From the NCBI RefSeq assembly GCF_056712565.1, contig NZ_CM160072.1: 64,000 nucleotides of DNA. One strand, 5' to 3'. Both the position numbers and the translations under genes were made by a program. Positions 1,573 through 6,892 of this stretch are shown one piece after another (within the stretch, counting starts at the first letter, position 1; each line of letters starts with the position of its first letter). The notes under the pieces are model-generated. The model worked only from the letters and a program-made list of their open reading frames with translations. It was not told where the DNA came from and did not search any database.

Positions 1573-3024
1573 TGTGAAAATATTAATTTCACATTACATA
1601 TTAATTATCCACAAAAAACATATAATTAATTTCAATGAGTTACATATAAAAACGTTGATGATTATCCAGCTTAGTATGGTTATGCAATGTGATGCTTAAC
1701 GCTTACAGATAATAACACATTCATATGAGCTATATATCATAATATTCAATAATCATGATATGCTAATCTGATTATGGATAAAAATTACTGAATGACGCCA
1801 TATTATGATTGGCAGTGTTTCCTGTATACGATGACTTATCTCTCCCGCATCATATGGGGGTACGTTTCTTAGGAAAAGTGACGGGGTTACAGAAGCCAAT
1901 TACGATAGTTTGTTGTAGAGTTATCACGAGTTTTTGTTGTTCTGAAGACGGAATCAGAAAAATAATTCCAGAGTAAACATGTCTGTTTTTTGACCAGTAA
2001 AGATCCATGCTGGCCGTGAAAAACTGAAATCAACACTCAGTCTGCATGGATGTCTGAAGATATTGAGAATGTCGGGAATGGTACTATATACGTATTATAC
2101 AGACATATCTTCACTAAGTGTTATACACGCATTTTCATAAACAATTCTACAAGTGTTTTCATTAAGCATTGCTGTACACATTGTTTGATCTGATACACAT
2201 CCAGTTTAGTAAATCTTTACGTTAGCTAAAATCAGTTTAAAGCTGCTACAAAACAATTTTTCTTGTTTAAGTAATCAGGATGATATTCTATTTTTCTGAA
2301 GTTACGTTTAACCTTTTCTTAGTTTTTGTGTTTTTAGTCGTTAACCTGAGACAAGTGTCTTTATGTAAAAACGCAAATCCGGCTGAGATAACCTGGCGTG
2401 ATTTACTGTGTGCTTACGATGATTTTGTTAAATGGTTTTATGGATGATTTTGTAACGATGAGATTGATGAGATGATTAACTGGCCCTGGTGTTTTTTCTC
2501 AGCGCAAGACTCTTTTCAGGAAAAGCGTGATGATTGGTTCTGGTGTTTTGATTCAGATGAGGTTTACGTTATCGATGGTTAACCGTTTTTATGGAGCGTA
2601 GTTAAAAGTAACGTTTTCAGTATAAGAAAATCGATTCTGATGTTGGTGGTTTTTGTTCTTGGGGCGGGGGTGTCTGTAAACAGGTTTTAATCGCGCTGTT
2701 CGGCTCTGTGATTGAGTTGTGTGGTTAAGCTGTAGGTGTGGTGTTGCTGTTGATTTACAGCGCCAGAAAGCGTTCTGATTGCGTTTCTGACGTTTTGTTT
2801 GCGCGTTCTGTTGATCCGTTTCCCTTCAGGCTTTGTAGTTTTTAAAAAACATTTATGCCGTTGTTGTGTGTTTTACTCTGCGTGTAGGTTTATTTTTTCT
2901 TCGTGGGGGATTCATTCTGTTTTAATCAGGAGCCATTGGCGTTGCTCAATGGCGGGATGCCGTAAAGTTTTACCGCAGTGATTAATGATGTGAAGTCAAT
3001 CCAAATCAACGGAGATCTCTCATC

Positions 3025-3756
3025 ATGAATCAACCAATACACAATGCTTACTGGTTATCCCGTTTTGAAAGTATTCTCAACAGTGCCCTGGCGCAACACC
3101 GTGCCGTCTCGTTAATCCGGGTGGATTTACGTTTCCCTGAGTATATGCCTGCCACCATCATGGATACCGATTTAGATTCAGCGGTGATTTCTCGTTTTTT
3201 TGCATCCCTGAAAGCAAAAATTCAGGCTTACCAGCGACATAAACGACGTGCCAACAAGCGTGTGCGTGCAACCACTCTGCGTTATTTCTGGTGTCGGGAG
3301 TTTGGCAAGGAAAAAGGCAGGAAACATTATCACGTGATATTACTGCTCAACAAAGATACCTGGTGCTCGCCAGGGGATTTCACCGTTCCTTCTTCGCTGG
3401 CGACGCTGATCCAACTGGCATGGTGCAGTGCTCTGCATCTCGAGCCCTGGCAGGGTAATGGACTGGTTCATTTTTCCAGGCGGACGCCTTTCCGTAAACC
3501 GACATCATCTGATGCTCGCCCTTCTTCCGATGATACGCCTTTGTCGGGTGGATGTTCTGAAACCAGGAAGGCTTCAGACAAAAAGTCTGGTGGATCCGCT
3601 GTGCTCTGGGTCAAGCGTGGTGATGTGGAAGCGATGCAGAAAGCCCGGAACAGAGCCAGTTATCTCGTGAAATATGAGACGAAGCAGCATGACGGTTCCG
3701 GGCAACGTAATTATGGTTGCAGTCGTGGGGTAGGGCGTCTACTGGATGGCAGGTGA
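3025..3756 (+). CDS. YfjJ/YagK-family (inovirus Gp2-like) prophage protein
   Basis: 243 aa ORF; HYHVILLL-type block and overall resemblance to the YfjJ/YagK proteins of CP4-type cryptic prophages; adjacent AlpA-like gene. Confidence 0.5.
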   Translation: MNQPIHNAYWLSRFESILNSALAQHRAVSLIRVDLRFPEYMPATIMDTDLDSAVISRFFASLKAKIQAYQRHKRRANKRVRATTLRYFWCREFGKEKGRKHYHVILLLNKDTWCSPGDFTVPSSLATLIQLAWCSALHLEPWQGNGLVHFSRRTPFRKPTSSDARPSSDDTPLSGGCSETRKASDKKSGGSAVLWVKRGDVEAMQKARNRASYLVKYETKQHDGSGQRNYGCSRGVGRLLDGR

Positions 3757-3913
3757 GCCCTGTAAAACGGCATCCGGTACCAGAGTGTATGTCACGGTAA
3801 GGGCGTCAGCCAACGCCCTTAGATCGTTTTCTGCTAATAGCCCTGAAGTCATGAAACGGTATTTTTATCTGCTTCCGCTCCTGGAAACACTCCGTCGGTA
3901 AAAACTTACCGGG

Positions 3914-4678
3914 ATGATTAATGATGTGAACCGAAGTCAACGGAGATCATTCCCCCTGAACCTGCATCCAGTGTTCTTTCCCTTATCTTCCCGTTCTGCT
4001 TCGGTTCTTCACTTATTCCATCAACTCCATCCGCAAACCATAACACGTCAGCTTATTCACGGGCAGGACGCATTGTGGGCTGCGCATAACGGAGCATATC
4101 TTATGAATGCTATCCCTTATTTCGACTATAGCCTGGCCCCCTTCTGGCCATCTTATCAGAACAAAGTCGTCGGCGTCCTTGAGCGTGCGCTGCGTGAGCA
4201 GTCCGGCTCACGGATACGGCGGATCCTGCTTCGTCTGCCGTGTGAATATGACAATACCTTCAACAGCAGAACGACCTGGTTTGGTATGGATTTTATCGAA
4301 ACCGTCAGTGCGCTGATGAATGCAACCCCCGGACGTGATCTCTGCTGGCTCCTGACCCGTCATCCTGAAAAACCGGAATACCACGTGGTGCTGTGCGTCA
4401 GACAGGAGTATTTCGATGGCCCTGAATTGGACCGGTTGATACTGGATGCCTGGAGTAACGTACTGGGCTTCGCGTCACCGGGTGAAGCAAAGCAGTATCA
4501 GAAGCAGATCACCCGGGATGTGGTGCTGGACAGTCGTTCACCGGACTGTGAAAACATCCTCAAAGAGTTGATATGGGCGTTCAGTGATTTCGCCCGCGAT
4601 CGTCGTGGTGTGTGCGATCCGGAAGCCCGTTGCCTCGCCGGTAATCCCGGCTATCCCGGATCTGCAGGACCGTTCTGA
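3914..4678 (+). CDS. Second YfjJ/YagK-family paralog (true start may be the ATG near 4103)
   Basis: Parallel architecture to 3025..3756 including the EYHVVLCV block; the first ~60 codons of the ORF are a leader shared with the element upstream of the first copy. Confidence 0.45.
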   Translation: MINDVNRSQRRSFPLNLHPVFFPLSSRSASVLHLFHQLHPQTITRQLIHGQDALWAAHNGAYLMNAIPYFDYSLAPFWPSYQNKVVGVLERALREQSGSRIRRILLRLPCEYDNTFNSRTTWFGMDFIETVSALMNATPGRDLCWLLTRHPEKPEYHVVLCVRQEYFDGPELDRLILDAWSNVLGFASPGEAKQYQKQITRDVVLDSRSPDCENILKELIWAFSDFARDRRGVCDPEARCLAGNPGYPGSAGPF

Positions 4679-4746
4679 AAGCTCGGTTCAGCATCTTTCC
4701 CTGCATTCGCACAAACTTCATAAATCTCACAAAGGACATTCTGACC

Positions 4747-4980
4747 ATGTTGACCACAACAAGCCACGACAGCGTGTTACTGCGTGCCGACGATCCCCTG
4801 ATCGACATGAACTACATCACCAGTTTCACCGGTATGACCGATAAATGGTTTTACAAGCTGATCAGTGAAGGTCATTTCCCTAAACCCATCAAACTGGGGC
4901 GCAGCAGCCGCTGGTACAAAAGTGAAGTGGAGCAGTGGATGCAGCAGCGAATTGAGGAATCACGAGGAGCAGCAGCATGA
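4747..4980 (+). CDS. alpA: AlpA-family phage/island transcriptional regulator (small HTH protein)
   Basis: 77 aa; FPKPIKLGRSSRWYKSEVEQW matches the AlpA signature (FP.P.KLG...W...E...W). Confidence 0.6.
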   Translation: MLTTTSHDSVLLRADDPLIDMNYITSFTGMTDKWFYKLISEGHFPKPIKLGRSSRWYKSEVEQWMQQRIEESRGAAA

Positions 4981-5254
4981 AACGTGTTGCAATACCAGCG
5001 CCGGCATTGCGGAAATCAGCCCTGTCCCCGATGCTGGCGACACTCCCGCTCATCTTTCTGCTGACTCCTCTGGTCTGCCAACTGTTTGTCATCATTTCCT
5101 GACTGATTCGTCATTCCCTTCGTCCCGCCAGTCACTGGTGTTTGTATCGTACCGTCCGGTGTTGATGTGCGTTTTCCGTGTGTCTGCACCGGCTTAACAA
5201 AATTCAACAGGGTTTGAAAAGGAACATTTCGTGCAAATAACCGAAGCCTTAATT

Positions 5255-5590
5255 TCAGAGCCGGGAGACATCCGGCGTTTTGTTCAGCAGGCGCTGGAGT
5301 TCTTTAATCTGCTTCATGGCAGCAGCAAGTTCAGAGGCAGGAACGACCTGTTCTCCTGCGGCCACAGCAGTAAGACTTCCCTCCTGGTATTGCTTGCGCC
5401 AGAGAAATAACTGGCTGGCTGCCACACCGTGTTGCCGGGCAACAAGGGAGACCGTCATTCCCGGTTCAAAGCTCTGCTGAACAATAGCGATCTTTTCCTG
5501 TGTAGTACGCCGTCTGCGTTTCTCCGGTCCTAAGACATCAATCATCTGTTCTCCAATGACTGGTCTAAAAACTAGTATTAAGACTATCAC
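5255..5590 (-). mobile_element. IS66-family accessory protein TnpA (orfA) relic; rest of the IS is missing
   Basis: [44 protein letters not shown] matches the IS66 OrfA signature; no orfB/tnpC follows. Confidence 0.6.
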
Positions 5591-5728
5591 TTAAATAAGT
5601 GATATTGGTTGTCTGGAGATTCTGGGGGCTAGTCTAGTTTTAAAGCGCCCCCTGCCGTATCAGAACTGGGGAATGCTACAGGGTTTGACCTGTTCCTCGA
5701 GGATCGTAGCGGAGCTAGCCATGAAAAA

Positions 5729-6793
5729 ATGATCCAGGCCCGAAATCAGCTTCTTGCTGAAGCGGCGAAAAGTCCAGCGTTAAACATGGTTCGTCCTAAC
5801 GGCATGAACGATGAGCCTCAGTTCCAGATTCTGATTGATGACGAGAAAGTTCAGGCGTTTAAACTGAGCATGAGCGACGTCGACAACATAATGTCAGCAG
5901 CCTGGGGTTCGATGTATGTAAATGATTTTAACGATCGTGGACGGGTGAAAAAAGTCTATATTCAGGGCGAACCCGGCTCACGTATATCACCGCAGGATTT
6001 TGATAAATGGTATGTCCGTAACAGTGATGGCGACATGGTTTCCTTTGCCTCTTTTGCAACAGGCAAATGGATTTATGGCTCACCAAAACTGGAGCAATAT
6101 AATGGTATCTCTGCTGTCGAAATCCTGGGGGAACCGGCACCAGGATACAGTTCCGGGGATGCAATGAAAGCAATTGAGGATATTGCGGCAAGACTTCCCG
6201 AAGGTTTCCATATTTCCTGGACAGGTTTGTCTTTTGAGGAACGACTTTCAGGTTCTCAGGCTCCTGCACTATATGCACTTTCACTGTTGATCGTCTTTCT
6301 GTGTCTGGCTGCACTGTATGAAAGCTGGAGCATTCCTTTCTCGGTCATGCTGGTTGTTCCGCTTGGTGTCCTGGGGGCTGTCTGTGCTACTTTGTTGCGC
6401 GGCCTTGGTAACGATGTCTTTTTCCAGGTCGGTTTATTAACAACAATAGGGCTGTCTGCGAAAAATGCCATACTTATCGTGGAGTTTGCTCGTGAATTGC
6501 ATGAGAAAGAAGGACTAAGCATTAAAGAGGCTGCTGTTGAAGCGGCGAGAGTGAGGTTAAGACCGATAATTATGACTTCGCTGGCATTTGTAATGGGGGT
6601 TATCCCACTGGCTGTCTCGACTGGAGCAAGTTCCGGAAGTAAACATGCCATCGGTACTGGTGTGGTTGGAGGGATGATCACTGCTACGATACTGGCAATC
6701 TTTTATATTCCTCTCTTCTATATGTTAATTGCCGGGTTCTTCAGCCGCAGAAATAAGAAATCATCGGATAAGACTGAAGCTGAGCAATCATAA
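5729..6793 (+). pseudogene. C-terminal third of an RND multidrug efflux permease (AcrB/AcrF-like); 5' two-thirds absent
   Basis: ORF aligns to the last ~350 residues of AcrB ([19 protein letters not shown]..., [20 protein letters not shown]..., MTSLAF) with nothing coding for the N-terminal ~650 aa. Confidence 0.75.
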
Positions 6794-6892
6794 GCATGAG
6801 TAAATATTCAGGTGCAGTAAACAACATACTGCGCCTGAGTAAATGGCTGTTGGGTTGGTACTAAATGCCCCAGAGATATTTCCTGAAATAAG

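Follow-up and report, generated by a model that had tools for sequence, protein, structure and literature searches.

A repeated dyad-and-box element ahead of two YagK/YfjJ-family genes in an Escherichia coli island, and its candidate role as a 5' control region

The 64,000-nt stretch of contig NZ_CM160072.1 (assembly GCF_056712565.1; hereafter, the window) contains a CP4-like island of Escherichia coli in which two genes related to yfjJ and yagK, referred to here as gene 1 and gene 2, are each preceded by a copy of the same short element. Both copies show a conserved architecture: an AT-rich dyad (GTA-N6-TAC), a gap of ~10 nt, the box TGATTAATGATGTGAA (box 2), and then the sequence TCAACGGAGATC, which resembles a Shine-Dalgarno (SD) sequence. 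On balance, we regard it as probable that the two copies represent the standard 5' control region of YagK/YfjJ genes, in which a promoter-proximal DNA site would be combined with a folded mRNA leader that hides the ribosome-binding site. The repeat, its conservation and directionality, and the complementarity and covariation of its parts were observed directly and are presented below.

An earlier note on this DNA had described a repeated sequence near 2980-3015 and 3914-3950, and this repeat was recovered with coordinates shifted by 1-2 nt. Within the 64 kb, TGATTAATGATGTGAA occurs exactly twice (0.69 occurrences are expected when up to three mismatches are allowed), as does TCAACGGAGATC. The similarity exceeds the span described earlier: alignment of the two upstream regions, which the note had called for, matches 2962-3017 with 3898-3948 at 43 identical positions with one 5-nt indel, and the local alignment score of 46 compares with 20.2 +/- 2.4 for shuffled sequences (n = 200; maximum 30). 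The repeat is far above chance. AT-rich GTA-N6-TAC dyads number only three in the 64 kb (at 2209, 2962, and 3898), all within 1.7 kb, and sites homologous to the one at 2209 are found in L077 and L081 (L numbers denote related loci and alleles). An inverted repeat was also noted upstream of each copy, namely GCCATTG...CAATGGC at 2932-2953 and TTCC-N6-GGAA at 3873-3886; among alleles, the arms of the latter are kept and its loop is variable. The features of the two copies and their genes are as follows.

2209-2220, plus strand: third AT-rich dyad, GTAAATCTTTAC, without box 2, in a region poor in open reading frames (ORFs) upstream of gene 1
2962-2973, plus strand: dyad 1, GTAAAGTTTTAC (GTA-N6-TAC), within the extended palindrome CCGTAAAGTTTTACCG at 2960-2975
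2978-3028, plus strand: upstream ORF (uORF), beginning at a GTG, with a second GTG inside it at 2990, and without an SD of its own
2979-2994, plus strand: box 2 of copy 1, TGATTAATGATGTGAA, the 5' arm of a predicted stem that would occlude the start codon
3006-3017, plus strand: 12-mer of copy 1, TCAACGGAGATC, holding the gene 1 SD GGAG (3011-3014) 10 nt before the ATG
3017-3032, plus strand: 3' stem arm of copy 1, CTCTCATCATGAATCA, including the gene 1 start codon at 3025-3027
3025-3756, plus strand: gene 1, 243 aa, annotated by the Prokaryotic Genome Annotation Pipeline (PGAP) as an inovirus Gp2 family protein, WP_001075472.1
3898-3909, plus strand: dyad 2, GTAAAAACTTAC, within the extended palindrome CGGTAAAAACTTACCG at 3896-3911
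3915-3930, plus strand: box 2 of copy 2, TGATTAATGATGTGAA
3937-3948, plus strand: 12-mer of copy 2, TCAACGGAGATC, SD-like, with no start codon following
4103-4678, plus strand: gene 2, 191 aa, PGAP hypothetical protein, with its start preceded by its own SD

Of 5426 complete E. coli genomes, 1882 carry the 70-nt leader of copy 1, nearly always at an identity of at least 95%. Its mean pairwise identity of 0.98 is that of the coding sequence, versus 0.57-0.75 at 2845-2934, 90-180 nt upstream (eight alleles). Around copy 2, a block at ~3877-3953 is invariant in seven alleles, in which the upstream gene is sometimes a different YagK variant and the downstream spacer takes two unalignable forms. 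For comparison beyond E. coli, 70 loci with YfjJ homologs were collected from other species and their leaders aligned at the start codon, and only in this alignment does the wider conservation become visible; the exact 16-mer core was found in none of the distant loci outside those of the E. coli type. Copy 1 aligns with the leaders of homologs that are only 30-40% identical in protein sequence, and the same layout, GTA-(T-rich)-TAC, ~10 nt, a box reading ATGnTATGAA or GATGTGAA, 8-14 nt, SD, 9-10 nt, and ATG, recurs in Hafnia, Kosakonia, Tatumella, Siccibacter, Rosenbergiella, and Entomohabitans, as well as in Providencia/Proteus, Yersinia, Pectobacterium, Erwinia, and Rheinheimera. The copy 1 12-mer TCAACGGAGATC aligns with the SD ACCGGAG or ACTGGAG of other genera. 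A hidden Markov model (HMM) built from the E. coli copies detects the leaders of other genera weakly, exactly at gene starts, and a covariance model built from non-E. coli leaders only finds 2962-3027 of the window (24.9 bits) and the copy 2 variants. Viral contigs contributed five loci only. The earlier note had named similarity limited to a few bases, with no conservation in related islands, as what would speak against its proposal; by alignment, HMM, and covariance model alike, the leader is conserved far beyond E. coli, so this objection falls away, and the shared regulatory element proposed ahead of both genes stands as a selected element conserved in related islands.

The dyad and the box travel together and in one orientation. 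In the other genera, GTA-N6-TAC is enriched at -53 to -63 of yfjJ starts, a second enrichment lies 600-700 nt downstream, just before the alpA-like gene, which in many genera comes after yfjJ, and a third peak is found near -400. Over all loci, 44 of 89 AT-rich dyads carry the box on the gene strand, versus 4 of 89 on the opposite strand. By these counts, a directional dyad-box module precedes YagK/YfjJ homologs and neighbouring alpA-like genes in many Gammaproteobacteria. A clue to the role of the dyad comes from E. coli K-12, in which a yagK promoter (TTTAGA-16-TATAAT) has been reported from RNA polymerase genomic SELEX (systematic evolution of ligands by exponential enrichment) and is bound by H-NS (Shimada et al. 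2014, PMC3946193). This promoter falls at the GGTAwTATA position corresponding to the dyad, and the dyad is therefore read as a -10/start region or an overlapping operator. The leaders of K-12 yfjJ and yagK hold neither box 2 nor the exact dyad, only the GGTAwTATA -10-like motif, and the dyads of the window carry only a weak TAnnnT. Judged by eye, the box or dyad fitted poorly as a Fur-box, CRP, IHF, sigma-28, or sigma-54 site, and these readings were dropped.

Read as RNA, the box of copy 1 and its equivalents in other genera are complementary to the translation initiation region (TIR) of their own gene. At copy 1, UGAUUAAUGAUG pairs at 11 of 12 positions with CAUCAUGAAUCA in the start codon region (3021-3032), in both the minimum free energy (MFE) and the centroid fold, and the 3' arm is an inverted match to box 2 with three mismatches. 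The predicted fold (z = -2.8 to -2.9) buries the start codon, with an unpaired probability of 0.21 at positions -14 to +3 versus 0.49 in shuffles, and the cognate duplex of this E. coli type, at -19.6 kcal/mol, is the best among 42 leaders. Other lineages present other sequences in the same relation. The Providencia/Proteus fold (z down to -6) joins UCUAGAUAUGA to UCAUGUCUAGA at the start; in L007-L012, the Hafnia-Kosakonia-Tatumella group of leaders, the SD ACCGGAG is complementary to CUCCGGU; the corresponding pairs for Tatumella and Rosenbergiella are CUCCAGU/ACUGGAG and CUUCAGU/ACUGGAG; and CCAAUG/CAUUGG and CCUAUGA/UCAUAGGA are the pairs in Rheinheimera and marine lineages, respectively. 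The anti-SD stem, predicted independently by RNAalifold, is 87% paired over seven sequences, with four pairs changed on both sides; none of 500 shuffles reaches this value, and at most 51% is paired when the segments are slid. G-U pairs are restricted to the sense strand. Across leaders, mean z is -1.7, and the initiation region is less accessible than in its own shuffles in 77%. In 42 non-redundant leaders, cognate leader:TIR duplexes average -10.1 kcal/mol versus -7.4 for non-cognate ones (0 of 5000 permutations), and they also beat reversed boxes (-8.1, P = 0.014) and dinucleotide-shuffled boxes (-7.7, P = 0.001).

A comparable arrangement is predicted ahead of alpA. In six genera, a leader of ~100 nt is conserved before alpA, downstream of yfjJ homologs; in it, the post-dyad segment UAUCCUCUGA is predicted to bind the SD of alpA (CAGAGGGAG), thereby enclosing a long hairpin (GGAGUACCGG...CCGGACUCC) in which three pairs show compensatory changes; the outer stem joins CCUCU to this SD. 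These leaders are located as follows.

L007:1323-1425, alpA leader
L008:3617-3720, alpA leader
L009:3616-3722, alpA leader
L010:3632-3735, alpA leader
L011:3614-3722, alpA leader
L012:3616-3718, alpA leader

Searches of Rfam with the window region and eight related loci gave no relevant match; a PhotoRC-I match inside gene 1 was set aside as chance (19.9 bits versus a gathering score of 45). A consensus scan, which cannot exclude an antisense promoter, gave no promoter-like minus-strand site near either copy.

At copy 2, the box has no start codon to pair with; a CTG at 3956 occupies the position of the copy 1 ATG. The segment from dyad 2 to gene 2 is instead predicted to form an extended structure.

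3908-4118, plus strand: long structured leader, 211 nt, from dyad 2 to gene 2

This leader has an MFE of -64.6 kcal/mol (z = -4.6; 0 of 200 shuffles). RNAalifold, run on seven alleles, predicts pairing of the box UGAUG (3922-3926) with CAUCA (4019-4023) and of GAACCG (3928-3933) with CGGUUC (4002-4007). In these helices, 98.6% of cells are paired, versus at most 50% when the segments are slid, and the partner segments are nearly the sole invariant runs in a divergent spacer (10 of 11 columns invariant versus 37 of 140; Fisher P = 3.5e-5). The gene 2 SD (GGAG, 4091-4094) is itself paired in a local hairpin at ~4065-4102, which is kept in both allele classes despite one-sided changes. Direct pairing of the copy 2 box with the gene 2 TIR was also tried and rejected as marginal (-14.2 kcal/mol, matched by 5% of shuffles). 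The gene 2-like paralog of L091, a locus from another genus, has immediately before its ATG a dyad and box in compact form. Because of this arrangement, copy 2 is plausibly the original leader of gene 2, now displaced by ~150 nt.

Taken together, we infer from sequence patterns and predicted folds where transcription would start, which kind of protein might bind, and how translation would be affected. At the DNA level, the dyad would mark the head of each transcription unit, one consisting of gene 1 and the other of gene 2 and alpA. It may be the -10/transcription-start region of a promoter that is weak and probably needs a factor, an operator for a dimeric island regulator, or both; since both units carry it, they would switch together. 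At the RNA level, the box, ~10 nt past the dyad and thus at the 5' end of the mRNA, would pair with a downstream segment, namely the start codon region of gene 1 at copy 1 and the SD in other genera. At copy 2, it would pair with the two conserved spacer segments, and the 3' end of the leader would separately sequester the gene 2 SD. The outcome would be low translation of a potentially harmful nuclease-like protein until the structure opens.

Several points weigh against this reading. The case at this locus is built on sequences and predicted folds. The scan of 2930-2980 and 3870-3915 gave no sigma-70 promoter at either copy; upstream of the dyads there is no convincing -35, and some genera (L007 and L012) are without the TA of the putative -10. 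The pairing partner of the box varies by lineage (AUG, SD, or spacer), and there is therefore no single conserved structure. Covariation sets are small, with seven and six sequences, and allele L006 has two uncompensated changes in the outer stem of copy 1. The copy 2 helices are invariant and their structure was derived from the same sequences; with no compensatory changes there, covariation is uninformative. The near-identity of the two copies could partly reflect gene conversion. Finally, the primary sequence of the box (wATGnnrTGAr) is more conserved than pairing alone demands, so a protein may read it.

The earlier note had considered it plausible that a common leader peptide or regulatory site controls both genes by translational coupling. 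The 16-codon uORF that it described before gene 1 is real (VINDVKSIQINGDLSS and a stop, 2978-3028): its TGA overlaps the gene 1 ATG as ATGA (3025-3028), no disruption of it was seen in the E. coli alleles read, and an extra in-frame ATG arises in it in allele L006. The shared peptide did not hold up, as TCAACGGAGATC reads I-N-G-D in copy 1 versus S-Q-R-R in copy 2; the 5-nt indel shifts the frame between the copies, and the conservation is therefore at the nucleotide level. As for the in-frame fusion to gene 2 at copy 2, ATG 3914 is indeed in frame with gene 2 over 63 codons in this allele, but the fusion is judged accidental because PGAP starts gene 2 at 4103, which leaves the end of copy 2 ~155 nt upstream, the copy 2 frame stops at codon 7 in allele L002, and the spacer at 3955-4080 has allelic indels of 11-14 nt that are not multiples of three. 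With these indels and the L002 stop codon, the idea that copy 2 encodes extra N-terminal residues of gene 2 was rejected. The upstream ATG of other genera opens a mini-ORF of 1-2 codons, an in-frame extension, or an ORF of ~10 codons, with no conserved peptide, and a uORF stop overlapping the main start is seen at copy 1, not at copy 2, and in only some of the other lineages. Coupling could still operate with the peptide sequence perhaps irrelevant, if translation of the box-borne uORF melts the stem and hands ribosomes to the gene 1 start; this is possible at copy 1 only, and we consider it rather unlikely. The gene 1 ATG lies within the predicted stem and the uORF runs through the 5' arm, so a translating ribosome would open the stem, and the overlapping stop and the ATG gained in L006 fit this scheme. 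So do L036, L038, L052, and L068, in which the box start codon opens an ORF of ~10 codons ending at +4, and L010, L053, and L054, in which the box-borne ORF ends within 2 nt of the start. Yet no SD-like sequence precedes GTG 2978, ATG 2985/2988, or GTG 2990, or the upstream starts of other genera, and marine leaders carry an anti-SD-like CUCC just before the upstream AUG. The mini-ORFs of the Providencia/Yersinia types end ~25-30 nt before the start, other upstream ORFs are in frame with the gene, and an ATGA overlap is automatic whenever the second codon starts with A. The peptide is unconserved across the 5-nt indel, and the arrangement is missing at copy 2, one allele of which has an early stop.

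The conserved box sequence raises a different question, namely whether the dyad and box are a bipartite operator or activator site for an island protein, such as the AlpA-like helix-turn-helix (HTH) protein or the YfjJ proteins, and the RNA complementarity is incidental. The symmetry of the dyad, its GTA/TAC ends one helical turn apart around an AT-rich centre, the fixed dyad-to-box spacing of ~10 nt, and the occurrence of one module before both yfjJ and alpA, which are unrelated genes, across many genera are in keeping with such a purely DNA-level site, as is box conservation beyond what pairing needs. But the box flanks change in step with the initiation region of their own gene (E. coli, UGAUU/AAUCA; Providencia, UCUAGA/UCUAGA; L007-L012, CCGGU/ACCGG versus CCAGU/ACUGG), G-U pairs occur on the sense strand only, and the 3' arm invariably coincides with the SD or AUG. 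An operator alone fails to explain this lineage-specific complementarity or the constant placement of the 3' arm, and we consider it unlikely as the whole account. AlpA as the ligand also meets difficulties. K-12 intA is a known AlpA target, and no dyad was found upstream of it. The Pseudomonas aeruginosa AlpA element GGGACG-N5-GGTA, which belongs to a different, larger protein, was rejected as a match in motif and spacing, and the papers on AlpA of phage-inducible chromosomal islands give no AlpA binding site. The placement of the 3' arm also bears on whether the hairpin and box could be an origin or nick site, cut or bound in cis by the adjacent Gp2-like HUH protein as in rolling-circle replicons. 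One element per paralog, a box in or beside a stem-loop, and a family with HUH-like HYHV and YxxK-like motifs that matches Pfam REP_ORF2-G2P would suit such a site, but an origin would not need a 3' arm that always falls on the SD or start codon at the correct distance from the ORF. The same module precedes alpA, which is not a Rep gene, the pairing partner shifts among lineages, and neither a nicking activity for the family in the literature searched nor a solved relative was found; we regard this as the most improbable of the readings. Hardly more probable is the view that copy 2 is a non-functional relic, what is left of the 5' part of a gene 1-type leader that was duplicated or converted, and retained only through recent ancestry. 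The copies are 84% alike over 51 aligned nt and the proteins far less so (BLASTP E = 0.03), CTG stands in place of ATG at the homologous position, the copy 2 tail in L077 (TCATCCTGAACC) resembles copy 1 (TCATCATGAATC), and copy 2 lies ~155 nt from the real start of gene 2. Against this, the copy 2 block has stayed invariant while the upstream gene and downstream spacer diverged or were swapped, the partner segments in the spacer are conserved, and the gene 2-like paralog of L091 has the dyad and box before its ATG.

Under the control-region reading, the two copies would govern genes of a widespread and little-studied family. The earlier note had called both genes YfjJ-like, and this is borne out directly for gene 1 and by way of relatives for gene 2. 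Gene 1 matches YagK_YfjJ_C (PF11726) at 3e-36 (125.4 bits; gathering cutoff 25.8) and REP_ORF2-G2P (PF23343) at 3.3e-10, and its protein carries the HUH-like HYHV and YxxK-like YLVK motifs. In gene 1, residues ~150-190 form an insertion of 35-40 aa (FSRRTPFRKP...SDKKSGG) in E. coli, which homologs of other genera are without; many E. coli alleles have a frameshift within it, giving 214-aa products. For gene 2, the direct PF11726 match is weak (12.5 bits, E = 0.14), as are its similarity to gene 1 (the BLASTP value above), its hhalign probability (6%), and its AlphaFold2 model (predicted local distance difference test score of 46). Exhaustive search added P0197 and P0203, which are related over their full length, the former at 35% identity (E = 3.6e-14); P0197 matches PF11726 at 1.4e-10, P0203 is likewise a member, and an alpA gene and another YfjJ gene precede P0203 in tandem. 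Since these relatives belong to PF11726, sequence comparison assigns gene 2 as a very divergent YagK/YfjJ paralog. Tandem divergent YagK/YfjJ paralogs beside alpA were also observed in another enterobacterial lineage (L091:1828-3088 and L013; 208 aa then 195 aa, with a gap of 46 nt), and the arrangement of gene 1 and gene 2 is therefore old. A PDB profile search returned no structural relatives of the family, and literature searches returned no functional study of YfjJ, YagK, or inovirus Gp2.

In the surrounding island, the two copies would head separate transcription units. The chromosome of E. coli ATCC 11775 matches window positions 2600-5200 at 100% identity, and the neighbours include GTPase, WYL, DUF905, and DUF932 genes. 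Two further features complete the units.

3798-3821, with a T-rich tail to 3831, plus strand: terminator-like hairpin 3' of gene 1, found by a terminator scan
4747-4980, plus strand: AlpA-like HTH gene, 77 aa, Pfam PF05930 at 2e-10

As predicted from the sequence, the terminator-like hairpin separates the two transcription units, and the AlpA-like gene is probably co-transcribed with gene 2. A hydrophobic 41-aa ORF at 4977-5102 overlaps the alpA stop as ATGA (PGAP hypothetical protein WP_000831909.1) and may be a small membrane protein or an artefact. Directly after alpA, transposase fragments end the island, and the annotation of this region (5230-6800) shows no integrase at the alpA-side end; beyond the fragments lie an N-terminally truncated pseudogene of a resistance-nodulation-division (RND) efflux permease and split TetR and AraC genes. 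On the other side, 1573-3024 is an ORF-poor stretch of 1.45 kb between a 407-aa gene and gene 1, first AT-rich and then with TG-rich short repeats (2400-2760); its short ORFs at 2280-2582 resemble pseudogene fragments, and comparably long gaps lie upstream of yfjJ in the E. coli islands L002 and L004. Just past alpA, related E. coli islands have a ProQ/FinO-family gene (L003:5952-6296 and L081:4463-4939) that is absent from the window; an RNA chaperone gene beside structured leaders might be relevant.

The element matches no Rfam family, no paper describing it was found, and it is previously undescribed. A leader masking the ribosome-binding site is an ordinary class of mechanism, and the added interest here lies in its coupling to a dyad shared by core island genes. 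YagK/YfjJ proteins are among the commonest uncharacterised core gene products of E. coli CP4-like islands and of the integrase/AlpA islands of other Gammaproteobacteria, and the copy 1 leader alone occurs in about one third of complete E. coli genomes. Searching for the module may locate where transcription units begin in such islands; the dyad, box, and partner are mutable targets for studying island silencing and induction, and the module hints that the Gp2-like protein has to be held at a very low level. A bolder proposal is that the dyad and box are the signature of a dedicated regulon, comprising the yfjJ paralogs, alpA, and the third site, in widespread integrase/AlpA islands of Gammaproteobacteria, with an island or helper factor acting at the dyad and a 5'-terminal RNA switch gating the HUH nuclease and the excision regulator; in a stronger version, the stem-loop would also be the nick site of the Gp2-like protein. 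We think this quite unlikely, and if true, it would offer the first functional handle on the YfjJ/YagK family and on island induction.

Among known systems, the repA leader of plasmid R1 (tap, CopA/CopT) and repY-repZ of IncB/IncI-alpha plasmids likewise regulate a replication-initiator-like gene, bury the initiation region in the leader, and have a short upstream ORF ending at the main start. They differ in that the promoter scan found no antisense promoter or RNA here, and in that the uORF of copy 1 has no SD or conserved peptide, and copy 2 and many genera do not show the arrangement. The fold-back of IS10/IS50 transposase mRNA and other hairpins in 5' untranslated regions that occlude the ribosome-binding site also mask the SD or AUG in the mRNA of a DNA-processing enzyme by pairing it with an upstream segment of that mRNA, and a mobile-element function would similarly be held low. 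However, the occluding arm here apparently lies in the native leader, ~10 nt past the putative start, whereas the IS10 arm is present only in read-through transcripts, and, unlike in IS10/IS50, the pairing is coupled to a conserved DNA dyad. The K-12 yagK promoter belongs to a paralogous gene, places GGTAwTATA at the dyad-equivalent position, and has a leader of ~190 nt, comparable in length to that between copy 2 and gene 2; the dyads of the window lack its canonical -35/-10, and neither box 2 nor the exact dyad is present at yagK. The P. aeruginosa AlpA element and the loading sites of Q-type antiterminators resemble the module as short in-promoter elements common to several operons of an alpA-containing module, although the P. 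aeruginosa AlpA is larger and Q-like, its GGGACG-N5-GGTA motif and spacing do not match, and the AlpA of the window is a 77-aa protein of PF05930.

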